The notes under the pieces are model-generated. The model saw nothing but the letters and a program-made list of their open reading frames with translations. It ran no database searches and was not told the DNA's origin. From assembly GCA_963789265.1 (NCBI GenBank), contig CAWBKB010000001.1:1120001-1184000 (forward strand): a stretch of DNA of 64,000 nucleotides, given 5' to 3'. This document shows, in pieces, positions 1,531-22,850 of this stretch. Numbering within the stretch: position 1 is the first letter of the stretch; every line of letters starts with the position of its first letter. Made by a program: the position numbers and the translations under genes. The DNA comes from an uncultured delta proteobacterium (lineage in GTDB: Bacteria; Desulfobacterota; Desulfomonilia; Desulfomonilales; Desulfomonilaceae).

Positions 1531-2454
1531 TCACATTCCGATGGATGCCCTGACGCCATGGCCGGCAATTATATGCTGGAGTCTTGCGAGCTGCTCTCCA
1601 CTTGGGGCCCCGCTGCGGCTTGGGTTGTAAAGACGACCCATCTGGTCGCATTTTATCTTGCCTCCCTCATGATAGGGGAGCAAAGAGATCTTTTCGGCCT
1701 TCACTGCATTCGCGAGACGTGAAACTTCCTCCACATGCTCCGTGGAATCGTTGAAACCGAGGATCAAGGGGATACGGACCCACACTTTCGTGCATTGGGA
1801 AGCACTTTGTAGATTTTGGAGGATGAGCCGATTTCCCACACCGGTTGCCTTCCTGTGCTCGGAGGAATCTAGATGCTTCACGTCAAATAGAGCGAGATCG
1901 ACAAATTCGAGGACTTCCCGCATGGTCGCCCATTGAGCATAACCGGTTGTGTCCAACGCGGTATGGAGTCCGTGCTGCTTACACAATTTGAGCAGATGAC
2001 TAACGAATCGCGCCTGAGCAAGAGGTTCGCCTCCCGACACGGTGACTCCCCCACTCGAGTTCCTGTAAAACGCCTCGTCTCTGAGCACCTCGGTCAGGAC
2101 CTCTTCCGGCTCGACGTACCTGCCGCAGACGGTGAGTGAATCGTACATGCACGCCGCAACACATTCGAAACACCGGTCGCATTTTTCCCAGACGATTCTT
2201 CTGGCATGTTCATCCAGAGTGATGGCTCCGCGTGGGCAGGCATGTACGCACTTGCCGCACCTCGTGCACGTGGTAGTCCTAGCCATCAGCGTGGGAAAGG
2301 GTTCCTGAGATTCGGGATTCGAGCACCAGTCACATCTCAAAGGACAGCCCTTCATGAAAACGGTGGTCCTGATCCCCGGCCCGTCATGAATGCTGAATCT
2401 CTGGATATTGAAGATCAGGCCTTGGTTTCCGTGACGGTTTGGTGAGGTTGTCAT
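1531..2454 (-). CDS. Glycyl-radical enzyme activating enzyme (radical SAM) with 2x[4Fe-4S] ferredoxin insertion
   Basis: IQRFSIHDGPGIRTTVFMKGCPLRCDWCSNPE; CTRCGKCVHACP and CDRCFECVAAC; GGVTVSGGEP. Confidence 0.96.
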   Translation of the reverse strand: MTTSPNRHGNQGLIFNIQRFSIHDGPGIRTTVFMKGCPLRCDWCSNPESQEPFPTLMARTTTCTRCGKCVHACPRGAITLDEHARRIVWEKCDRCFECVAACMYDSLTVCGRYVEPEEVLTEVLRDEAFYRNSSGGVTVSGGEPLAQARFVSHLLKLCKQHGLHTALDTTGYAQWATMREVLEFVDLALFDVKHLDSSEHRKATGVGNRLILQNLQSASQCTKVWVRIPLILGFNDSTEHVEEVSRLANAVKAEKISLLPYHEGGKIKCDQMGRLYNPSRSGAPSGEQLARLQHIIAGHGVRASIGM

Positions 2455-3125
2455 CAACTGCTTTTTCCTCTGCCGAGTTTCTGTTCCACCCTCGCTGTAC
2501 CGGCTATGAAGATCTCGGCGAGCGTACGCGCCAACCGGTTCATGTGAGCAACAACTTCCGCCTCACTTCGGCCCGGATATTTCCGGAAGCTGATCAAGAT
2601 TCCATTCAGCGCCGAGAAAAAGAGATGAGAGAGTAATCTGACGTTGCCTTTCACGTGCATGTTCTTAAAGACCGTGTCAAAAACATCGAGAAGTTCGCGC
2701 TCCACAGCGTTCAGTTTTTCCACGGCTACAGGATTTACCTGTGCGTGCAGCATGAAATGGGCCATCATCCTGAAATATACGTCGTGCTCCGTCAGGTACT
2801 GGATGAATGCCTCGGCGGCCCTCTCCAGGTAGTGCTCTTCACTGTCCTGGATGGATGCCTTAAACTCATTCAGCATGTTCCTGGTGCCTCTCAAAGATGC
2901 TTCCACGAACAAAGACTCCTGATCCTTGAAGTAGGTGTAGATGGAGGCAGGTGAGATGTTGGCTTCTTGAGCGATGTCTCTCATACTAACCTTGTTGAAG
3001 GGTTTAGCCGCGAATACTCGTTCAGCCGCCTCGATTATGATATTCCTGCGAGCTTCTCTTTCTTTTTCTTTGAGCAGCGCGAATCCATTTCGTCGTTTCA
3101 TCAAGTTCCTCTCATAATTTGTCAT
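2454..3125 (-). CDS. TetR/AcrR-family transcriptional regulator
   Basis: IIEAAERVFAAKPFNKVSMRDIAQEANISPASIYTYFKDQESL; stop overlaps activase start. Confidence 0.92.
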   Translation of the reverse strand: MTNYERNLMKRRNGFALLKEKEREARRNIIIEAAERVFAAKPFNKVSMRDIAQEANISPASIYTYFKDQESLFVEASLRGTRNMLNEFKASIQDSEEHYLERAAEAFIQYLTEHDVYFRMMAHFMLHAQVNPVAVEKLNAVERELLDVFDTVFKNMHVKGNVRLLSHLFFSALNGILISFRKYPGRSEAEVVAHMNRLARTLAEIFIAGTARVEQKLGRGKSS

Positions 3126-3328
3126 TTACGGCTCCGGAAGCGTGAGCATATCCTAATTTCCCTGTGGTGGCGGGTTTTTGAGTGCAAGAACGTGGACGCC
3201 GATTCGACGCGCATCGGACTCTCTCGCTCTCGGGTTCAGATTGATTTGCGCCACATTTACACTTCATTATAAGGCATGAGCAACGATGGGATAGTACACC
3301 GAGCAGTCGTTGGGGTCAACAGCAATGG

Positions 3329-3370
3329 TTGACTTAACGAACATTATACCTTATGGTAAACATCGTTTAC
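3329..3370 (+). promoter_or_regulatory. Putative sigma70 promoter of the GRE with overlapping operator
   Basis: TTGACT(3329)-17 bp-TATGGT(3352); palindrome gtaaac-atc-gtttac at 3356-3370. Confidence 0.5.
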
Positions 3371-3402: not shown

Positions 3403-5799
3403 ATGCAAAATCCAAAAGATATAAAAAACAGGCTTGTCATCAAAGCCGTCCGCAACGTGCGGCGAGGATATCAAGGAGATGAGGTTGAAAGAGGCATGTA
3501 CCGCCCCGACATCAAGCTTGATCTCCAACGATCTCGGCTCCTCACAGAGTCCTACAAAGAAAGCGACGGGATGCCGATGGTCATGAGACGGGCAAAGGCC
3601 CTGGAAAACATCCTTACCAAAATGGATCTCTACATCCAAGACTGGGAACGAATCGTGGGCAGCAGCGCCTCCTCGCCCCAAGGTCTCTACTTCGGCATAG
3701 ACATGAACTGGCGGTCCGTGAGCAGGATCGTTAAAGGCCAGGAGGGCCAAACCCTGTTAGACGATGCTGGTAGAGCCGAGCTTGCAGGGCTCGTTGAATA
3801 CTGGAAAGGCAAGTCGATGAGTGACCGTCAGCAGGAGGTATTTACCGGAGATATTCTGAAATATTGGACCTACGACGGCACTTTCTTGTGGACTCATTGG
3901 TCGGAACTGGGAATCCCGAATTACGAAAAGATTTTTAGGGTAGGAATGGGCGGCATCATCGATCAGGCCGCGACACGACTCCTGGAGATTGATAGAGAAG
4001 TGCCCCCGGATTACGTCGAGCAAAAGGAATTCCTTCAGGCCGTTATCATCGCTTTGAAAGCGGTCATTAAATTCGCCCATAGATACGCGAAGATAGCCCG
4101 CGAAATGGCAGCAAAGGCGGCCGATGAAGAATCAAGGGCGCGCCTGGAAGCAATAGCTGCGACGTGTGAGCGGGTCCCGGAACGTCCTCCCGGATCTCTG
4201 GTCGAGGCGCTACAATCATTCTTCTTCATCCATGTGGCGCGATACATCGAATATTCGACCCTGGGGATCGGGGTCCGTTTTGACAAGTTGTTCGGCCCTT
4301 ACTACGAACGGGATCTGCGCGAAGGCAGGATGACCAGGAACGAGGCGCTGGAACTGCTGCAACTACTGTGGGTGAAGTTCCACGAATTGGGGCTCGTGTA
4401 TTCGCCGTTGCTGTCGGGAATATACGGAGGAGTGGAGTCCCTTCAGGCCATCACTCTGGGAGGCGTGGACAAAGACGGAAAGGATGTCACCAATGAGATG
4501 ACATACCTGGTCCTGGAGACGGCCAAGACCATGAGAACGCTCGAGCCGAGCATTGCCCTTCGTTATCATGCCAACTCACCTCAAGAATTGCTGTCTCAGG
4601 CCACGGATGTGATCCGGCTGGGCATCGGCTATCCGTCATTGTTCAATGATAAAGCTTTGATTCCCACACTGCTCAAGTGGGGTGTCCCTCACGAGGAAGC
4701 CAGGGATTACGCGGTGACGGGATGCGTGTACATTGAAATACCGGGCAAGAATATTTGTCGCCGGGCACTGGGAGCCTTGATTTTGCCGAAATGCTTGTGG
4801 TGGGCGTTGCGTCAAGGCAAGAAGCCGAAAACGGGCGTTCAGTGGGGCGCTGCCACGCCCGATCCCCGTACGTTTCAATCCGGCACGGAACTCCTCGACG
4901 CTTACCTGGATCAGGTGCGTTTCTTCTTTGGGAAACAGAGCCGGATTGAGAATACTTGTCGATCCCTCTATGCAAAGTACCTCCCGAGGCCCTTCTATTC
5001 TGCGGTGCTCGATGGCTGCATCGAGCGAGGCAATGACTGCCGGCAGTGGGCGTATCCCTCGATGGTGCACGACTTTTGCGTCATAATTGGCGCCACCAAC
5101 GTAGTCGATTCGATTGCCGCGATTCAAAAAGTCTTGTTCGAAGATAAAAGAGCATCCATGGACGAGCTTCTGGCCGCGTTGGATGCCAATTGGGTCGGAT
5201 ATGAAGATCTGCGGCAGATGATGATCCGAGCGCCCAAATTCGGCAACGACGACGATCTAGTGGATACGATCGCTGTTAAGGTTCACCACGGGACTTCGGA
5301 AGTCCTGGCGGAATTCACGGATCGCTTTGGCTATCCCTGCAGAGGAGACGGCAGCGGGGTGTCCGCGACATACGGTTGCGCGTTTGACACTCCTGCCACG
5401 CCCGACGGCCGAAGGGACGGAGAACCCTTCGCGGACGCAACACTTTCCCCGAGTCAGGGAAGGGACGTTCGGGGTCCGACCGCGGTTCTGAAATCCGCGG
5501 CCAAGATAGACACTACCAAGACCTACAACCATTTGTTGAATCAAAAGTTCTTGCCCCAAATGCTCGATGGAGAGCTGAAAGACGTGTTCATCAGCTATCT
5601 TAGGACGTGGGGCGATCTTGGTATCAGTCACATTCAGTTTAACGTGCTGGACAAAGAGACACTCTTGAACGCTCAACAAGAGCCGGAGAAGTATCCTGAT
5701 CTCATTGTAAGAGTGGCGGGTTACAGCGCCTACTTTGTCGATTTGAGCAAGGGCTTGCAAGATTCGATCATCGCTCGAACCGAGCAATCCTTTCATTAG
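3403..5799 (+). CDS. Glycyl radical enzyme (PFL superfamily, non-PFL, substrate unknown)
   Basis: 798 aa; C-terminal Gly loop LIVRVAGYSAYF; single-Cys loop YAVTGCVYIEIPG; PKFGNDDD and ATPDGR motifs. Confidence 0.95.
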   Translation: MQNPKDIKNRLVIKAVRNVRRGYQGDEVERGMYRPDIKLDLQRSRLLTESYKESDGMPMVMRRAKALENILTKMDLYIQDWERIVGSSASSPQGLYFGIDMNWRSVSRIVKGQEGQTLLDDAGRAELAGLVEYWKGKSMSDRQQEVFTGDILKYWTYDGTFLWTHWSELGIPNYEKIFRVGMGGIIDQAATRLLEIDREVPPDYVEQKEFLQAVIIALKAVIKFAHRYAKIAREMAAKAADEESRARLEAIAATCERVPERPPGSLVEALQSFFFIHVARYIEYSTLGIGVRFDKLFGPYYERDLREGRMTRNEALELLQLLWVKFHELGLVYSPLLSGIYGGVESLQAITLGGVDKDGKDVTNEMTYLVLETAKTMRTLEPSIALRYHANSPQELLSQATDVIRLGIGYPSLFNDKALIPTLLKWGVPHEEARDYAVTGCVYIEIPGKNICRRALGALILPKCLWWALRQGKKPKTGVQWGAATPDPRTFQSGTELLDAYLDQVRFFFGKQSRIENTCRSLYAKYLPRPFYSAVLDGCIERGNDCRQWAYPSMVHDFCVIIGATNVVDSIAAIQKVLFEDKRASMDELLAALDANWVGYEDLRQMMIRAPKFGNDDDLVDTIAVKVHHGTSEVLAEFTDRFGYPCRGDGSGVSATYGCAFDTPATPDGRRDGEPFADATLSPSQGRDVRGPTAVLKSAAKIDTTKTYNHLLNQKFLPQMLDGELKDVFISYLRTWGDLGISHIQFNVLDKETLLNAQQEPEKYPDLIVRVAGYSAYFVDLSKGLQDSIIARTEQSFH

Positions 5800-5998
5800 A
5801 CTGCCGGGCGGTGCAGGTTTCCGTGTTCCCTGGGCGGACGCGAATGAGAATACTCTTCAGCCAGGCTAAGCAAGGAAGGTGAGCGGGAACCATTTTGGGG
5901 GACGGGCGGTCCCCTAGCCAAGACTCTCATGCAAACAAGGCTTGCGATCCTTTTGACGTTCGGCTTCAAACCGACCAAACGACGTGGGAGGTATGCAC

Positions 5999-7651
5999 AT
6001 GGCAGAGAGTATCGACAAGAAAAGTTCGTATCTCAGATTTGAACCGGGGTGGGGAGCGGAGCCTTTGCCACCGATTCCGGAGGTCCCGTTTTATGAGCCG
6101 ATCAAGCAAACCGCTTATCGCTATCCCTTGAAGACCGCACTGATTTCCTTTGAAAGAAGCGTCACGTACAGTGAGTTGATGGAGTTGTCCGATCGATTTG
6201 CAGCAGCTCTCGTTGATCTAGGGGTGAGGAAAGGCGATCGGGTTGGAGTGGTGTTACCCAACACCGCTCAGCACGTCATTGCCTTTCAAGGCATAATCAA
6301 GGCTGGAGCAGTCTCGGTCCCGTGCAATGTGATGCTCAAAGGGCATGAGCTTGCGTACTTGTTCAATGATGCAGGAATCGAAGTGGTCGTGTGCCTGGAT
6401 CTCCTGTGCCCCCTCGTTGGCGCTATAAAGGGGCAGACGAACGTCAAACGCATCATCTCGGTCCATGTTCTGGACATGTCGGAACCAGGGGCATGGGTTC
6501 CGCCCATGCTAAGAGCGCAAAAAAAAGAAATACCCGGGACCCTGGATTTCCAGGTCCTGCTCGACACGTATACACCAGAAGTTCCGGCTGTTTCCATCGA
6601 TCCAAGGAAGGATCTCGCCCTGATCATATACACTGCAGGAACCATGGGGAGCCCCAAAGGAGTAATGCAAACCCATTACCACATGGTCTACACCTGTCTG
6701 AACCATGCTCATGTCCTCGGCCTCGATTACAACGACTCCAATTTGCAGCTTTTGCCCATGTTTCACATTGGGGGATATTACTTGTTTCTTCATCCCCTCC
6801 TTTACAAGGGCGGAAGAGTGGTCATGATGCCAATGTTCGATTCCAGCGAGCTGCTGAAGCTGATTGACAAGCATAAGTTGAACCTGCTTGTCGGCCCGCC
6901 AACTCTCTATGTTGCCCTGTTGAATCATCCGGACATATCTCGTTACGACCTTTCGCATTTCAAATCGAGCATCGCGGCCGCGGCGCCGGTTCCCACGATC
7001 CTGCAACAGCGCTGGCGCGAAGTTACGGGTATCGACCTGAACAAAGGGTGGGGCATGACGGAAACTAACGGAGGTGCCATCGTCTCGTTGCCCAACAAGA
7101 GCAGTCTCGATTCTATCGGGGTGCCCATGTGCGGCGAAGTCAAGATCGTCAAACCGGAAACCGATGACATCCTGCCCATCGGTGAAGTGGGTGAAATAAT
7201 GTGCCGAAGCCCACAGGTGGCCGGCGGTTACTGGAACAAACCTGAGGAGACCCGGGTCGCGTTTGAGCTCGATGGGTGGTTGCACACGGGGGACGCCGGC
7301 TATATCGGCGATGACGGGTTCGTGTACTTCGTGGAGCGCATCAAGGACCTGATCATCGCTTCAGGGTACAACATCGCCCCAAGCTATGTGGAATCGGAGA
7401 TTATGAAGCACCCGGCAGTGAGCGAGGTTGCGGTGATCGGGGTACCGGACGAATATCGAGGCGAAACGGTCAAGGCTTGCGTTGTTCTCAAAGATGAATT
7501 CAAGGGCAGGATCGCGGAGGACGACATCTTAGAGTTTTGCAGAGTCCACATGGCAGCCTTCAAACGCCCGCGCATAGTGCAGTTGGTGGATGACTTGCCC
7601 AAGAATACCATCGGCAAGATACTGCGCCGCGAACTGAGAGACAAATCGTAG
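5999..7651 (+). CDS. Acyl-CoA synthetase (long-chain fatty acid-CoA ligase-like AMP-binding protein)
   Basis: YTAGTMGSPKG, GWGMTE, WLHTGD, RIKDLII, LPKNTIGKILR motifs; RBS GGAGG before ATG 5999. Confidence 0.93.
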   Translation: MAESIDKKSSYLRFEPGWGAEPLPPIPEVPFYEPIKQTAYRYPLKTALISFERSVTYSELMELSDRFAAALVDLGVRKGDRVGVVLPNTAQHVIAFQGIIKAGAVSVPCNVMLKGHELAYLFNDAGIEVVVCLDLLCPLVGAIKGQTNVKRIISVHVLDMSEPGAWVPPMLRAQKKEIPGTLDFQVLLDTYTPEVPAVSIDPRKDLALIIYTAGTMGSPKGVMQTHYHMVYTCLNHAHVLGLDYNDSNLQLLPMFHIGGYYLFLHPLLYKGGRVVMMPMFDSSELLKLIDKHKLNLLVGPPTLYVALLNHPDISRYDLSHFKSSIAAAAPVPTILQQRWREVTGIDLNKGWGMTETNGGAIVSLPNKSSLDSIGVPMCGEVKIVKPETDDILPIGEVGEIMCRSPQVAGGYWNKPEETRVAFELDGWLHTGDAGYIGDDGFVYFVERIKDLIIASGYNIAPSYVESEIMKHPAVSEVAVIGVPDEYRGETVKACVVLKDEFKGRIAEDDILEFCRVHMAAFKRPRIVQLVDDLPKNTIGKILRRELRDKS

Positions 7652-7673: not shown

Positions 7674-7818
7674 GTGCAGCGTTTCATAAATACGGTGCCA
7701 CTTGCACAGACACCCACGACCCCGCGTCCCGCGGGGAGGCCGGTCCTACCGGAAGAGGGCTCCGGCTACAGGCATTATGTATGGAATAATACGTGACCGG
7801 ACTTATGAAAGAGAGTGA
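7674..7818. mobile_element. MITE-like element (second copy at 32420-32591)
   Basis: Imperfect terminal inverted repeats (tttcataaatacggt / accggacttatgaaa), flanked by CTAA on both sides, with high similarity to 32420-32591. Confidence 0.7.
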
Positions 7819-8165
7819 CTAAGTGATTCTCGGACAAGTTGCGAGTCAAATTTCGAGCTGAGATAGCCGGCCCCAGTGCGGATCGCAGCGATGATGTGGC
7901 TTTTTAATTCATTGGTGCGATTCAACACACACAGTGCCGCTACTGCGCAGAGTTCCCGCTCTCGTTGGGTCAACACATCACGCGCATAGAGATTGCCGAA
8001 CACGTGATTGATGAAATCCGACGGTATGTCAAAGTACCCGAATAGCTCATGGAGCAATTGAGTTCTTGTGCCCCCCACCAGTTTCTTGGACACGTCCGTA
8101 GGGTCGTCACCCGGACGGATGTCCGAAGCAATTGCCGCTTTCGTCTGGTCGTCTGGCATTACCAT
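7803..8165 (-). pseudogene. Carboxymuconolactone decarboxylase (CMD/AhpD-like) family protein, apparently 3'-truncated
   Basis: FGNLYARDVLTQRERELCAVAALCVL..ELKSHIIAAIRTGA is CMD-like; the expected xEEIxE..Y.G.P helix is absent. Confidence 0.6.
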
Positions 8166-8228: not shown

Positions 8229-9170
8229 TCATACCGGATCAAAAGCCTGTATCTTCTCCAAGTGCTCAAGCATCTTGAGATACCTTTTGTCTCGTTTGAT
8301 AAGGATTTCTTCCTCGGTGCGACCTCCATAGTCGTAAATACCTTTGGACGTCTTTGCGCCGAGTTGGCCTTGTTTCACTTTTTCTTCCACCAGAGGGCTG
8401 ATTCGATCATGGCTCCTCATGATGTCGGCCACGAGGTCGAGGCCCGTGAAATCCACCGATTGCACCACCCCTACGATGGGAAGTCTAATCCCGAGGCTGG
8501 CTTTGACGGCGAAATCGATCTCTTCAGGTGTCGCCCACTCGTTCTCCAACATCTCCCATACGGCTTTTCCGATGCTCCTTTGAATTCGGTTGACAATGAA
8601 GGATGGAACGAATTTTTTCAGCATCAGGGGCTTTTTTCCGATCCTCTTCATCAGTTCTGTAGTGAATGTGACGACCCTTGCATCGGTGTTCGGTCCGGGC
8701 ACCACCTCCACCAAAGGGATTATATGTGGCGGCGCGAACCAGTGGGCGACAATAAGGCGGTCCGGCGATTTTACCCGGGCGATCTCGAAGATATTCAATG
8801 ACGAGGTATTGCTGGCCAGAACAGTATCTTGAGGGCAGATTTCGTCGAGTTGTCTAAACACCTCCCGCTTGATATCAGGCACCTCGCTCACGGCCTCCAG
8901 GACAAAATCCGCTTTTCGTGCCGAGGCAGTCAGATCGGTTGATGTACGTATACGGGCCGTAATCTCCGGTATATCGTTTTCATGCACCCGTCCGAACTCG
9001 GCCAGGGTATGTAAATTAGTCCTTATGAGGGTCGTGGCACGCGTAAGCGCGCGTTCGTTCAGATCTACAAGATCCACTTCAATACCGGCCTGAGCAAAGA
9101 CCTGAGCGATGGAATGCCCCATCACCCCAGCCCCGACTACCAGGACAGTCCCGACATTACCAGCTTCCAT
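8229..9170 (-). CDS. 3-hydroxyacyl-CoA dehydrogenase
   Basis: VVGAGVMG Rossmann motif, EAVSE, ASNTSS, HWFAPP, FIVNRI. Confidence 0.93.
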   Translation of the reverse strand: MEAGNVGTVLVVGAGVMGHSIAQVFAQAGIEVDLVDLNERALTRATTLIRTNLHTLAEFGRVHENDIPEITARIRTSTDLTASARKADFVLEAVSEVPDIKREVFRQLDEICPQDTVLASNTSSLNIFEIARVKSPDRLIVAHWFAPPHIIPLVEVVPGPNTDARVVTFTTELMKRIGKKPLMLKKFVPSFIVNRIQRSIGKAVWEMLENEWATPEEIDFAVKASLGIRLPIVGVVQSVDFTGLDLVADIMRSHDRISPLVEEKVKQGQLGAKTSKGIYDYGGRTEEEILIKRDKRYLKMLEHLEKIQAFDPV

Positions 9171-9301
9171 GACAGCCGCTCCTCCCATTGATATTTCTCC
9201 TATTATGTTTTACCCGACCTTTTGCCGCGTCCGAGTGGATTGCACCCCATTTTGGGGTAAATCGCATCAACGGCTTCTGAGATCCGGCGCAGAGAACCTT
9301 G

Positions 9302-9369: not shown

Positions 9370-10239
9370 TTATTTTTTGTAGCTGTACCAGCCCTCGCCC
9401 GTCTTCTGGCCGAGTTTACCTTCAGTAACCTTTTTCACAATGCTGGGAGTCGGAAGGTCCGCCCTGTCGCCGGTTTCATAGAAGTGGCTCATCCCGATGT
9501 CATAGCTCAGGTCGATACCCGTCAGATCCATGAGGCGGAACGGGCCCATGGGATGGCCGGCGCCGTAGACGCAAGCTTTGTCTATATCCTCATAAGAGGC
9601 CACGCCCATTTCGAGCATCCACATGGCTTCTTTCGAAATAGCCGCGACAATTCGGTTCAGGACGAAACCGTCCACTTCTTTCTTGATCAGGATGGGCACT
9701 TTGTCGATCTTCAGACAAAAGTCCATCATGCATTGCGCGGTTTCATCTGAGACATGGGGACCTTGGACCACTTCGACGAGCTTCATGACCAGCGCGGGGT
9801 TGAAGAAATGGAGATTGCAGACCTGGGAAGGACGATTGGTAACATCGACGATACGGGAACTTACAATGAAAGAACTGTTCGTGGCCAGAATGGCTTTCGG
9901 TGGAGTGAACTTATCCAGATCGGCAAAGACTTTCCGCTTCAGATCGATTCTTTCCAGGACCGCCTCTATAACCAGGTCGGCATCCTTGACGGCTTCTTTC
10001 AGATCGCCCGTAAACGAAATAAGACTGCGGGCCCTTTTCGCGGCATCTTCCGTCAGCTTCCCCTTTTGAACGCGCCCCGGCAGATAGGTATCGCAAAATT
10101 TCTCCGCTTTTTCGAGCACTTCCGGAACCACGTCGGTGCTGACCGTTTTTAAGCCGTGAAGGGCACACTGCAGCGCGATCTGGTGCCCCATGTTCCCGGC
10201 CCCCACAACAGATACGTTCTTCACTTCATCTATCTTCAT
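9370..10239 (-). CDS. 3-hydroxybutyryl-CoA dehydrogenase family protein
   Basis: GAGNMG, EAVLE, ATNSS, LHFFNP, GFVLNRI, GHPMGPF, GKLGQKTGEGWY. Confidence 0.93.
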   Translation of the reverse strand: MKIDEVKNVSVVGAGNMGHQIALQCALHGLKTVSTDVVPEVLEKAEKFCDTYLPGRVQKGKLTEDAAKRARSLISFTGDLKEAVKDADLVIEAVLERIDLKRKVFADLDKFTPPKAILATNSSFIVSSRIVDVTNRPSQVCNLHFFNPALVMKLVEVVQGPHVSDETAQCMMDFCLKIDKVPILIKKEVDGFVLNRIVAAISKEAMWMLEMGVASYEDIDKACVYGAGHPMGPFRLMDLTGIDLSYDIGMSHFYETGDRADLPTPSIVKKVTEGKLGQKTGEGWYSYKK

Positions 10240-10810: not shown

Positions 10811-11699
10811 TTAGCCGACCATTTCGCGGATGACTTCTTTCACGGAGAGGATATCCGTCACGAGCCCTGCAATCTGGCCTGCAGGAAGAATACCCAGATC
10901 CACATTCCCCTTGAGCCAGGAATCCTCCATTGTTGGACCGCCGAAGCCCGACATCGCTTCAGTCTCTCCACTTTGAATTCTTTCCGTGAAAGCTGTCTTC
11001 AGCGCCCGAACCTGGAAACGTCCCAAGTTGATGAGTAGGGTCCCCAAGTCCCCTGCTTCAACTATAAGCTTCTTGTAATTGTCGTGCGCGATGCATTCCT
11101 TTGTGGCGATGAACCTCGTTCCCACTTGCACCCCTTCAGCTCCAAGGGCCATGGCTGCCCTGTACGCCCTAGAGTCCGCTATGCCTCCCGCAGCGATTAC
11201 CGGAACCTTGACCTTGTCCACAACCGCTGGAACAAGAACCATTGTTGATGGTCCTCCAAAGCCCTGTACACCACCTGATTCACTCCCTTCTGCCACTATG
11301 GCATCCGCTCCCAGTGCTTCCGCCTTGGAGGCAGAATCGGCGGTCGGTACAACGACCAGAGCTTTGATCCCATGCTCTCGGAGAAACGGAATGATTTGCT
11401 TTGGAGATCCTCCGGATACAGTCACCGCGCTGAATGCCTTCCTCAGCCATCACCGCACCAAATTCCAATACCTTGGGGTTCATGGCAAAGAGGTTTGCAC
11501 CAAAGGGTTTGTTGGTAAGCGCCTTGGTGGATCGCACCTGATCACGTACAGCTTCCGCGTCAGTCGCGAAAGCCGTTGCGAGGAGTCCGTAGCCGCCTGC
11601 CTCGGAAACCGCAGCCACGAGCTCTGGATTGCAAATCACTCCCATGGCGCCCTGAATGACTGGATACTTCACGCCTAATAGTTCAGACACACGCGACAT
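10811..11699 (-). CDS. Nitronate monooxygenase/FabK-family flavoprotein (one +1 frameshift near 11430)
   Basis: YPVIQGAMG..VAAVSEAGGYG..PFGANL in one frame; AEGSESGG, AAGGIADS, GVQVGTRF in the next. Confidence 0.88.
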
Positions 11700-20977: not shown

Positions 20978-22850
20978 TCACACTTGCTGGAGTTGCCCCA
21001 TTGTGCTGCGCAAGTGAATCGGTTCATTAAAGTGTGGGTCGGGCTGTGCCACGCGTAATACTTCTTCGGGCGTTGTGACTCCGTTGAGCATCTTTCGAAT
21101 GGCATTTTCCCATAATGTGCTGAACTTCTTTTTCCTAGCCATTTCTTTCATAGCGATTATGTCAGGAGAATCTATGATCAATTTGCTCATGTCATCATCA
21201 ACCGCTACCACCTCATAGATGCTCTCCCGTTTGAAATAGCCGGTGTCACGGCATTGATAGCACCCCCGCCCCCTCCTGAGCAAGACCTTCTCAGGCCCCT
21301 CGAAGTTGAATCCTCTTTTGTTCAATTCCTTCAACTCGATCGAATGGTCCTGAGCACAATAGGGACATATTTTGCGTATGAGCCGCTGAGCCATCAGGCC
21401 GACGACAGTGGAAGCCAAGAGGAAACTAGGGACTTTAAGGTCCAGCATTCGGTGCACCGCACTGAGGGCATCATTGGTATGAACCGTGGAAAAGACGAGG
21501 TGGCCGGTGAGCGCGGCTTGCACGGCCAGTTGGGCTGTCTCTTCGTCTCGGATCTCTCCTATCATTATGACGTCGGGGTCTTGCCGCATGACATGCCGCA
21601 TAAGGGGCCCAAAGGTCATTTTCTCCTCAGGATTGTGGAGCATACTGACCGCGGGGTTCACGCTAATCTGATTGAATCTCTCAAACACCATTTCCACGGG
21701 GTCTTCGATGGTGGTTATATTCCGATCGGCAGTGGCAAGGACCTTCATGGCAGAATAAAGACTAGTAGTCTTGCCGGAACCGGTCGGGCCTGTAACTAGA
21801 ACTATCCCGAACGGGCGGACTATTAGGCTCTGAAATGTGGTCAAATCCAGAGGAGTCAGGCCAAGCTCTTCGAGGTCCATGAAAAGTAGGTCCGGGTCCT
21901 GTATCCTGCATACGGTCTTTTCTCCAAACGCCGTCGGCACCGTGGAAACTCGGACCTCTATTTCGCGGTTACGCGTGCTCAGCTTTATTCGACCATCCTG
22001 GGGGCGCCTCTTTTCGGCTATGTCCAGCGCGGCCATCCCTTTGATGCCGCGAAGTGAAGGCCCCGTGTAGCGGAGCCGGAATCCAGTCGACATCGTGCAA
22101 TATTCCGTCTATACGCATCCTGATGACTGTCTTTGTCCGCTTGGGCTCGATATGAACATCACTGGCCCGTTGTGAAAGGGCCCGCCGAAACATCGCGTCC
22201 ACGGCGGTGCGGATGTTCTTATCGGTGTGCGAGATCTCTTCAAGACTTTTGATTTCAGCGAGCCGTTCGAGGTCGGAGAGATCCTTGAAATACTTGACAT
22301 GCTTCTCAGCCGCGGCCTTGATTGAGCCTCTAAAGCCGTGGAACTCCAGGAGGATCTTCATGATGTCCGATTTTGGGGACACCACAACCTCAAGCTCTTT
22401 TCCCGCGACACGGGATACGTCTTCGAGTACCTCTCTCAGAGAGGGGTCGTAGATGGCCACGCGCAGCTTGCCGTTGACTTCGTCCACAGGAACCAGCAGA
22501 AAACGGTCGGCAAATTTTTGCGGGAGAGTTCGGGTGACAAAATCCGGGTCCAGGTCCAGCGCTTCTAGCCTCATAAACGGATGGCCCAAGTGATCCGCCA
22601 GGACTTCGACAATAATCGGTTCCTCGACTTGGCCGTGAGGACCTGAAAGTTTCATGTCCGCGATAATTTCGATCGCAGTGGTCTGGTGGGCATGGGGGAC
22701 CGAGGCTCGTGCTTGCTTGGCAACATCCTGGGACAGACGATCCTTAATATAAAGTTCCGCCTCCTGAAGGCGCACCAAGCTGCTGTCATCCAAGAAGCCT
22801 TTGGAGTAGAGTATTTCGCCGATCTGGTTGATATCGTTATAGAGTTCCAC
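20978..22850 (-). CDS. GspE/PulE/PilB-family secretion ATPase; +1 frameshift near 22047
   Basis: RASDVHIEP..RIDGIL..FTSR then IKGMAALDIAEKRRPQDGR, GPTGSGKTT, RQDPDVIMIGEIRD, TGHLVFSTVHTN. Confidence 0.92.

Follow-up and report, generated by a model that had tools for sequence, protein, structure and literature searches.

Glycyl radical enzymes (GREs) are oxygen-sensitive catalysts of some of the most difficult reactions in anaerobic metabolism, and a known function has been assigned to only a few dozen of them. The text of a 2026 review (PMC13450708) sorts them into class III ribonucleotide reductases, formate lyases, decarboxylases, X-succinate synthases, eliminases, isomerases and aminoacyl radical enzymes. 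The same text describes a Cys-x-Glu (CxE) motif as kept by all eliminases and isomerases, and entire GRE clades as being without validation. A residue other than Glu two positions after the catalytic Cys (Cys+2) has precedents: as given in the text of PMC7079210, it is Gln in the phenylacetate decarboxylase (PAD) PhdB and Ser in PflB and BssA. In the X-succinate synthases, benzylsuccinate synthase (BSS) and (1-methylalkyl)succinate synthase (MASS), the text of PMC12358834 describes fumarate as held by the Cys-loop backbone, by Arg508 or Arg492 (Cys+15), and by Gln707 or Glu690. Here, these systems are compared with a GRE encoded at positions 3403..5799 (+) of a 64-kb stretch of contig CAWBKB010000001.1, from an uncultured delta proteobacterium of the Desulfomonilaceae; this whole stretch is referred to as the window. 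The enzyme (798 aa) carries Tyr at Cys+2 in a Cys-Val-Tyr-x-Glu loop. Taken in aggregate, the data make it very probable that it is a member of a genuine orphan family, distinct from the known functional classes as they are annotated; it is also a candidate for new chemistry.

The gene is an uninterrupted open reading frame (ORF). Both the ORF call and the translation give an ATG start, 798 codons and zero internal stops, and a GGAGGA lies 9-14 nt 5' of the ATG. Pfam places PF02901 on residues 38-640 (E 2.6e-159) and PF01228 on residues 681-779 (E 1.3e-29). The PFL-like barrel domain and the C-terminal glycyl radical domain are thus both present, which places the protein in the GRE superfamily. 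An AlphaFold2 model built from a 50-row alignment (pLDDT 92.6, pTM 0.92) contains two finger hairpins, with strands at 437-439/443-445 and 768-771/774-777. Foldseek comparison of this model with solved GREs in the PDB gives TM values of 0.88-0.92 at identities of 22-34%.

An earlier note on this DNA, made from its letters alone, had described an intact RVAGYS Gly loop and a GCVY Cys loop with Tyr at the position of the Glu. Both descriptions hold. Positions 5710..5727 (+) translate to RVAGYS, which contains Gly773 and matches the GRE Gly-loop fingerprint RVxG[FWY], and positions 4720..4746 (+) translate to GCVYIEIPG, containing Cys441, Tyr443 and Glu445. In all five HMMER alignments with solved enzymes (CutC 9f3w, glycerol dehydratase 1r8w, IseG 5ymr, and propanediol dehydratases 5i2a and 9rco), the loop aligns without gaps, such that Cys441 falls on the catalytic Cys and Tyr443 falls on the Glu of CxE. 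Of 8000 proteins scored in a word-indexed search, 825 reached E <= 1e-50. The top 120 clusters from this search, together with one representative of 67% identity from an exhaustive search, make up the 121 family representatives used here. C-V-Y-x-E-x-P-G is found in all 121 and the preceding Gly in 119; Cys441, Tyr443, Glu445, His165, Trp166, Glu168 and Gly773 are each invariant across the 121, and RVAGYSAY occurs in 120/120 family members. As Cys441, Tyr443, Glu445 and Gly773 are present in every representative, the Tyr loop is real, and reflects neither chance nor sequencing error.

The family is also discrete. The best 120 clusters, nearly all metagenomic, are 68-100% identical to the query, and 230 of the 798 positions are at least 98% conserved across the 121 representatives. 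An exhaustive HMMER search of 50%-identity representatives recovers one cluster at 67% identity (1219 bits), followed by the next at 45% (733 bits). This fall from 67% to 45% identity therefore delimits the family as an island, whose size is well over 100 clusters at 90% identity. Neither a Tyr-loop GRE nor a characterised family member was found in the running text of the open-access and bioRxiv papers searched, and the databases searched likewise gave no characterised member. In the text of the 2026 review, tyrosine appears only as the Gly-loop Tyr and as Tyr691 of PAD, and never at this loop position (PMC13450708). Two published systems were considered and set aside: limonenylsuccinate synthase, which the text of PMC12583861 gives as 61% identical to BssA, is not of the Tyr-loop family; and the benzene 'Magic' gene cluster, as described in the text of PMC13101534, has no GRE in it. 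The text of PMC8163825 interprets Asgard GREs that are 29-33% identical to AssA/BssA as alkane- or toluene-activating.

No NCBIfam equivalog cut-off is passed by the enzyme. Expressed as bits over cut-off, the scores are 538/1000 for HpsG, 476/1100 for HypD, 444/1050 for CutC, 441/1000 for HpfG, 398/1109 for the PflD-type PRK09983, 374/1100 for indoleacetate decarboxylase (IAD) and 290/1150 for 4-hydroxyphenylacetate decarboxylase (HPAD). The subfamily model TIGR01774 gives 551 bits, below its cut-off of 678. The protein is no formate lyase (PFL, TdcE), as it scores 103 bits against a cut-off of 994 for TIGR01255 (PFL) and has a single Cys (G-C-V) rather than tandem Cys-Cys. Other class hallmarks are similarly absent: the C-x-E motif of eliminases and isomerases, with Tyr443 at the Glu position in 121/121; the Ala, Ser or Thr that replaces the radical Gly in aminoacyl radical enzymes, with Gly773 in 121/121; and the PhdB signature residues (Cys+2 Gln, Cys+13 Trp, S-x-Y-x-V), with the HPAD and IAD equivalogs failed in addition. 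NCBIfam labelling covered 110 of the 150 nearest representatives. Four of these 110 pass an equivalog (three HpsG and one CutC, with 31-38% identity to the query); the 20 nearest representatives are not among them.

In PDB sequence searches, the enzyme scores 452 bits with CutC, 438 with glycerol dehydratase, 435 with IseG, 422 and 407 with the propanediol dehydratases, 386 with MasD, 368 with AAD 7e7l and 358 with BSS. No solved structure is more than 34% identical to it by PDB sequence or Foldseek search. The earlier note had proposed an uncharacterised GRE class. This proposal stands: the proteins form a discrete cluster, below all equivalogs and at most 34% identical to solved structures, with no characterised member in the literature searched. 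The finding named there as one that would overturn it, a characterised GRE of high identity with the same active-site residues, was looked for and did not emerge.

The eliminases and isomerases (1R8W, 5I2A/9RCO, CutC, IseG/IslA, HpsG, HypD, YbiW/PflD) give the best sequence scores, at 400-452 bits, and share with the family a single-subunit architecture, the loop start G-C-V and a P-G turn. Their defining Glu is Tyr in the family, and other polar positions of glycerol dehydratase become Ile, Leu, Gly and Ala. The X-succinate synthases (BssA/TutD 4PKC, 4PKF and 5BWE; MasD 9O8U) share the fold (TMq 0.90-0.92) at ~30% identity, but their bit scores are lower than those of the eliminases. PhdB, an enzyme of environmental anaerobes, likewise has no Glu in the Cys loop and requires a Tyr in the vicinity of the Cys (as described in the text of PMC7079210); its CxQ loop, Trp495 at Cys+13 and Tyr691 on a barrel strand, compared by motifs only, have no counterparts in the family.

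Phylogenetic placement links the family to proteins that lack the Cys-loop Glu. The Cys+2 residue is very variable among the 150 nearest representatives, which carry E, S, H, Q, D, T, V, R, W and others. A FastTree phylogeny of 146 rows (138 sequences of 740 aa or longer, made up of the query and 137 representatives, with 8 family members added and 13 shorter sequences omitted) places the family (support 100) within a 36-row set (99) that is free of Glu at Cys+2 and includes CMS/CMA proteins. Two of the latter, P0189 and P0140, have BSS and MasD as best PDB matches, with 755 and 522 bits. An unrooted IQ-TREE quick search on 55 hand-picked rows resolves a 20-row orphan group with the family (100), a synthase-like group (87) and a CxE group (98). 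As the unrooted tree could not say which group is nearer, E. coli PflB was added as an outgroup, and YbiW and PflD were included as CxE enzymes of known label (quick search, LG+G4). The resulting tree is rooted within the CxE proteins, and a 32-row clade (SH-aLRT 100) without Glu at Cys+2 unites P0135 with the orphan and synthase-like groups. The family (100) lies inside the 20-row orphan-family group (100), with P0123 (loop C-A-V, 99) and then a C-M-[WIQ] trio (97) as nearest neighbours. Outside this clade are YbiW, PflD, HpsG, CutC and the group of P0224, which alone among the representatives has PhdB-like motifs (CVQ, Trp at Cys+13, S-x-Y-x-V).

The only members of the 32-row clade that resemble characterised enzymes are those similar to X-succinate synthases. 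The family is a separate sister-level group within this shared clade and is not nested among the synthases. Our reading is that it represents a separate branch of the Glu-less lineage that also gave the X-succinate synthases, and is not one of the synthases. The loops around the family in this clade (P0122-P0144) are diverse (CMW, CMI, CAV, CVS, CVT, CVR, CVG, CLQ and others), and with the exception of the succinate-synthase-like rows, its members fail the NCBIfam equivalogs. The Glu-less clade is a large unstudied sector of the GREs.

Conservation mapped onto the aligned relatives suggests how the active site may differ from those of known classes. Arg453-Arg454 (4759..4764, +) lies at the start of the strand that follows the Cys loop, immediately before model strand 455-460, and is a candidate carboxylate anchor; Arg454 is kept in 120 and Arg453 in 117 of the 121 representatives. 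When 34 sequences are aligned by L-INS-i, this pair is in register with the [KR]-R conserved in the synthase-like group. In the HMMER alignment with CutC, Arg454 pairs with Thr502 (Cys+13), a mutated active-site residue according to PDB entry titles. Asp649-Gly650-Ser651 (5347..5355, +) falls on a barrel strand that faces the active site in relatives, and Asp649 and Ser651 are each kept in 120/121. Through P0189, L-INS-i matches the position of BSS Gln707 (MASS Glu690) with Ser651, which places Asp649 two residues to its N-terminal side. D-G-S is common to much of the orphan group, and P-Q-S occupies this place in the synthase-like group. The loop after the first barrel strand reads H-W-S-E-L-G (His165, Trp166, Glu168), where BSS has Glu189, Tyr197 and Ser199.

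The HMMER alignment with glycerol dehydratase pairs His164 with Ile171, His281/Ser282 with Leu287/Gly288, Tyr339 with Leu347, Glu435 with Tyr443, Asp447 with Ala455 and Tyr640 with Asp649. We take His164, His281/Ser282, Tyr339 and Asp447 to be the proton-handling set of glycerol dehydratase, and of the residues listed for that enzyme, all except Cys433 and Glu435 have catalytic roles that are presumed in this way. Across the family, 52 positions are at least 98% conserved and carry the same residue in no more than 10% of 149 other representatives; among them are His165, Trp166, Glu168, Tyr443, Glu445, Arg454, Asp649, Thr656, Arg247 and Trp466. The conserved residues suggest a pocket that is polar and charged, with a carboxylate-anchoring Arg retained; its lining positions would be unlike those of the X-succinate synthases. 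Two of the 52 positions exchange a residue common to other GREs. Residue 247 (4141-4143) is Arg in 120/121 family members and Glu in 137/149 other GRE representatives, and residue 466 (4798-4800) is Trp in 120/121 and Glu in 130/149. Arg247 and Trp466 may be a coupled structural replacement.

The enzyme gene lies beside genes for activation, regulation and CoA thioester formation. On the opposite strand, a GRE-activating radical-SAM enzyme of 308 aa (1531..2457, -) matches PF04055, and its residues 61-106 contain 4Fe-4S ferredoxin-type (Fer4) matches; it passes TIGR02494 with 345.4 bits against a cut-off of 174.35. This agrees with the ferredoxin insertion that the earlier note had assigned to the activase, and the product is predicted to be the dedicated activase of the enzyme. 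A TetR-family regulator (2454..3125, -; PF00440) is divergent from the enzyme gene, from which it is separated by a 277-bp region, and its stop overlaps the activase start by 4 bp. Beyond the activase is a second TetR gene (680-1369, -). Downstream, an AMP-forming, FadD-like acyl-CoA ligase of 555 aa (5984..7651, +; PF00501, PF13193) falls below every NCBIfam cut-off, and its best PDB match is A. fulgidus FadD-1 (3g7s, 275 bits). The 184-bp gap between the enzyme and ligase genes contains nothing but antisense frames and a 78-aa TTG frame extending into the ligase gene. Consistent with the earlier note, which reported no adjacent small-subunit ORF, this gap holds no plausible candidate. In many relatives, the enzyme and activase genes are separated by -4 to 20 bp, so that there is no room for small subunits of the succinate-synthase or HPAD type. 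Genes for beta, gamma and delta subunits such as those of the X-succinate synthases are thus not present at family loci, as judged from this locus and the flanks of its relatives; a subunit could be encoded elsewhere.

Farther downstream, a 120-aa ORF with a weak match to the carboxymuconolactone-decarboxylase (CMD) family (7803-8165, -; E 8e-6) lies between the ligase gene and two 3-hydroxyacyl-CoA dehydrogenase genes (8229-9188 and 9370-10239, -; PF02737, PF00725). These dehydrogenases are possibly involved in downstream beta-oxidation. An NMO/enoyl-reductase-like gene (10811-11699, -; PF03060) is present as two overlapping frames: 11280-11699 matches PF03060 positions 3-84, and 10811-11425 matches positions 125-329. 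The split is a frameshift, representing either a pseudogene or an assembly error. Genes for an FMN reductase and an OYE-type flavoprotein are also found downstream, and the remainder of the window is housekeeping. Elsewhere in the window, a T2SSE ATPase ORF (20978-22093) and an MshEN-domain ORF (21969-22850) on the - strand overlap by ~125 bp in different frames, and may be one frameshifted ATPase gene of type IV pilus or MSHA type. A DDE transposase gene (PF13751; 37280-38740, +) is ~31 kb from the enzyme gene and does not adjoin the locus.

Related loci distinguish the recurrent neighbours from the incidental ones. A set of 43 was collected from species-representative genomes, including Desulfatibacillum alkenivorans DSM 16219, a Desulfosudis oleivorans metagenome-assembled genome (MAG), and MAGs labelled Chloroflexi, Actinomycetota and Leptospirales. 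For the 42 loci in which the enzyme ORF was recognised, the window included, neighbours were counted up to 6 kb away: an activase is present in 24, a TetR-family gene in 17 and an AMP-ligase in 10. Restricting the count to the 27 loci flanked by 3 kb or more on each side gives 16, 11 and 9. Orthologues of the activase (49-73% identical) lie beside the enzyme gene in 24/42 loci, and those of the TetR regulator (52-83%) adjoin it in 10. Ligase orthologues (57-68%) follow the enzyme gene in five loci of different lineages (L014, L021, L028, L038 and L001). Two others (L004 and L009) have non-orthologous ligases (31-33%) together with Liv-type binding-protein, permease and ATPase genes. Within five ORFs of the enzyme gene, enoyl-CoA hydratase genes occur in 4 loci, acyl-CoA dehydrogenase genes in 3 and ABC ATPase genes in 3, with others rarer. 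The 3-hydroxyacyl-CoA dehydrogenase cluster is found in only 2 loci, and the beta-oxidation, OYE, NMO and FMN-reductase genes were rejected as pathway partners because they are not recurrent in relatives. From these counts across loci, the core module is TetR, enzyme and activase, often with the ligase, and the remainder is mosaic. The X-succinate synthases likewise have a ferredoxin-type activase, and a CoA-activating enzyme and beta-oxidation genes lie near some family loci as well.

The type of reaction can be considered from these data. Acid/base-assisted radical chemistry on a carboxylate-bearing substrate is most likely, and a carboxylic acid is somewhat favoured as the substrate or co-substrate. 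The proposal ranked first, although tentatively and with the odds against it, is that the enzyme joins a polar substrate to an unsaturated acid by radical C-C addition, or catalyses the reverse reaction, in the manner of the succinate synthases but with no accessory subunits. Such a reaction would likely involve: installation of the radical on Gly773 by the activase; transfer to Cys441 to form a thiyl radical; and abstraction of a hydrogen from the substrate by the Cys441 thiyl. Arg454 would hold the substrate carboxylate at the site of fumarate binding in the X-succinate synthases. Proton transfers could then be handled by Tyr443, which is probably paired with Glu445 on one face of the hairpin, together with Asp649 and the His165/Glu168 loop; the succinate synthases, being free of acid/base steps, would have no need of such transfers. 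The acid product might be thioesterified by the neighbouring ligase and then oxidised. Taken as a whole, the statement that the enzyme is functional and belongs to a widespread but uncharacterised GRE family whose hallmark is C-V-Y-x-E-x-P-G, with a succinate-synthase-like mechanism as proposed, has a little less than an even chance of being correct.

Several observations weigh against this proposal. The C-M-[SA]-P loop of the synthases is absent, with CVYIE here as compared to LCMSPG in BSS and P0189, and the equivalent of Gln707 is missing. The equivalence of Arg454 and BSS Arg508 comes from a loop alignment with indels, in which HMMER places the P0189 Arg two residues earlier than does L-INS-i; the active-site assignments as a group are sequence mappings. 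Raw similarity favours the eliminases, as CutC and glycerol dehydratase score above MasD and BSS. Foldseek is uninformative on class because every GRE class scores TM 0.88-0.92. The three groups of the outgroup-free tree radiate from one open node that does not indicate the nearest relative of the family, and the rooting thus depends on a single outgroup branch, which is long (2.1) and comes from a quick search with rows hand-picked from the neighbourhood of the query. Only one in three complete loci has the ligase, and mutase or carboxyltransferase genes are not recurrent in the related loci. Finally, the genomes that carry the family come from soil, peat and sediment and have no specific link to hydrocarbons. 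The only sequencing runs listed are soil-metagenome DNA runs of one study, perhaps the one from which the assembly was made, and no RNA run is among them.

One alternative is that the enzyme is a 1,2-eliminase or isomerase of a familiar type, with a hydroxy or amino compound as substrate. In such an enzyme, a Tyr443-Glu445 relay would replace the Glu, and Asp649 or His165 would protonate the leaving group. The top sequence scores, at 407-452 bits, are all with CutC, glycerol dehydratase, IseG and propanediol dehydratases, and the best NCBIfam rows are TIGR01774 and HpsG. Glu445 is invariant and lies two residues past Tyr443; as both are on the same hairpin strand (443-445 in the model), a Tyr-Glu dyad appears sterically plausible. 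However, all eliminase equivalog cut-offs are missed, the rooted tree sets the family apart from the CxE proteins, and the presumed proton-handling residues of glycerol dehydratase are replaced by Ile171, Leu287/Gly288, Leu347 and Ala455. CxE is kept in all characterised eliminases and isomerases covered by the relevant text of the review (PMC13450708, sections 5.6-5.7), and the text of PMC7079210 describes E-to-Q and E-to-A mutants of CutC and HypD as dead. Elimination or isomerisation is rated as unlikely. A decarboxylase free of small subunits, similar to PhdB or AAD, would act on an organic acid, perhaps converting a dicarboxylate to a mono-acid for the ligase, with Tyr443 as proton donor. 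The text of PMC7079210 describes PhdB as lacking the Cys-loop Glu (CxQ) and requiring a Tyr near the Cys, with Y691F inactive, and AAD works without an accessory subunit (text of PMC13450708, section 5.4). The invariant Arg and the acidic residues would suit carboxylate binding, and acid-uptake-type ABC genes are found in some loci. Against this, the Cys+2 Gln of PhdB, its Cys+13 Trp and its S-x-Y-x-V motif, ~124 residues ahead of the Gly, correspond here to Tyr443, Arg454 and R-G-D-G-S; P0224, which carries the PhdB motifs, is outside the 32-row clade; the HPAD (290/1150) and IAD (374/1100) scores are far below cut-off; and a mono-acid substrate would leave the ligase partner unexplained. Decarboxylation is rated as rather improbable, somewhat below elimination.

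A reaction type new to GREs would be consistent with the 52 family-specific conserved positions, with a 20-row group that contains no characterised member by NCBIfam, and with the description in the review text of entire clades without validation (PMC13450708). Such a reaction could be a carbon-skeleton rearrangement, a C-C lyase reaction or Tyr-mediated proton-coupled electron transfer on an acid or acyl-CoA. Nothing positive points to any particular new reaction, though, and most GRE discoveries have fallen into a few mechanistic classes according to the same text (PMC13450708); this explanation is given about the same low probability as elimination. That the protein is an inactive relic or pseudo-enzyme is highly improbable. 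A same-genus orthologue is split and has an internal TGA, but the frame here is intact, the Gly and Cys are invariant, the 230 near-invariant positions of the 798 hold across phyla, and the activase is co-located. The boldest reading, offered speculatively and with a prospect of a little under one in three, is that the family carries out a reaction beyond the formate lyase, decarboxylase, hydroalkylase, eliminase and isomerase classes of the review. The enzyme would then be a subunit-free descendant of the hydroalkylase lineage in which a Tyr-Glu proton (or proton-coupled electron) relay beside the thiyl radical allows a C-C bond to be formed or cleaved in some organic acid common in soil or sediment, which would feed a dedicated CoA ligase.

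The distribution of the family is broad across phyla and patchy among close relatives. Its members span Desulfobacterota, Syntrophales, Chloroflexota, Actinomycetota and one Leptospirales-labelled genome; the best 120 clusters are labelled Syntrophales, Thermodesulfobacteriota/Deltaproteobacteria and Chloroflexi. The genome containing the window (6.06 Mb in 9 contigs, 95.6% complete, 6.1% contaminated) has a single PF02901 gene. Among 40 related genomes, family-level copies (62-90% identity) occur in three, and other matches are at most 42% identical. As the gene is patchy among these relatives and spread across phyla, it is accessory and probably laterally moving. Two of these three genomes (G013 and G017) have two family copies each. 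In a genome of the same genus (G004, C49:230792-232964), the orthologue is 82-90% identical and in two pieces with one internal TGA, and is either a broken gene or an assembly error. Paralogous copies are also found at individual loci. In the cultured sulfate reducer Desulfatibacillum alkenivorans DSM 16219 (L023, 8698-14449), two paralogues flank a single activase; one MAG has tandem family copies (L037, 9980-14828); and several MAGs have two loci each (L006/L033, L034/L037, L039/L041). The family is diversified within genomes.

The divergent region between the enzyme and TetR genes contains two palindromes that are candidate operators. The first, GTCAAC-N7-GTTGAC (3315..3333), overlaps a -35-like TTGACT and may be a TetR operator; the second, GTAAAC-ATC-GTTTAC (3356..3370), lies just after a -10-like TATGGT. 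Both palindromes are perfect and overlap the -35/-10-like pair TTGACT-17-TATGGT at 3329-3357. A similar inverted repeat is found at the equivalent of 3315-3333 in 4 loci with orthologous TetR genes. At the equivalent of 3356-3370, L002 and L014 have TTGAAC-N3-GTTCA(A), and L036 has a half-site. Each palindrome is single-copy in the 64-kb window; as the search patterns were derived from the site itself, this shows only the absence of a second copy there. A promoter and terminator scan returned 3 promoter-like sites as compared to 4.0 expected from shuffles, and because this is no excess, the scan is no evidence by itself.

The family is abundant and highly conserved and has a rewritten catalytic loop, making it a good target in the search for new anaerobic chemistry. 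The family is relevant to annotation as well: its proteins carry generic public names, 'formate C-acetyltransferase', 'pyruvate formate lyase family protein' and, once, 'choline trimethylamine-lyase' (choline TMA-lyase). The placement suggested by the rooted tree is on the hydrocarbon-activating side of the GRE tree, yet the family appears to be subunit-free with a polar active site. Once its reaction is assigned, a widespread step of carbon turnover in anoxic settings would be explained, and a simpler, single-subunit scaffold for radical C-H functionalisation could follow.

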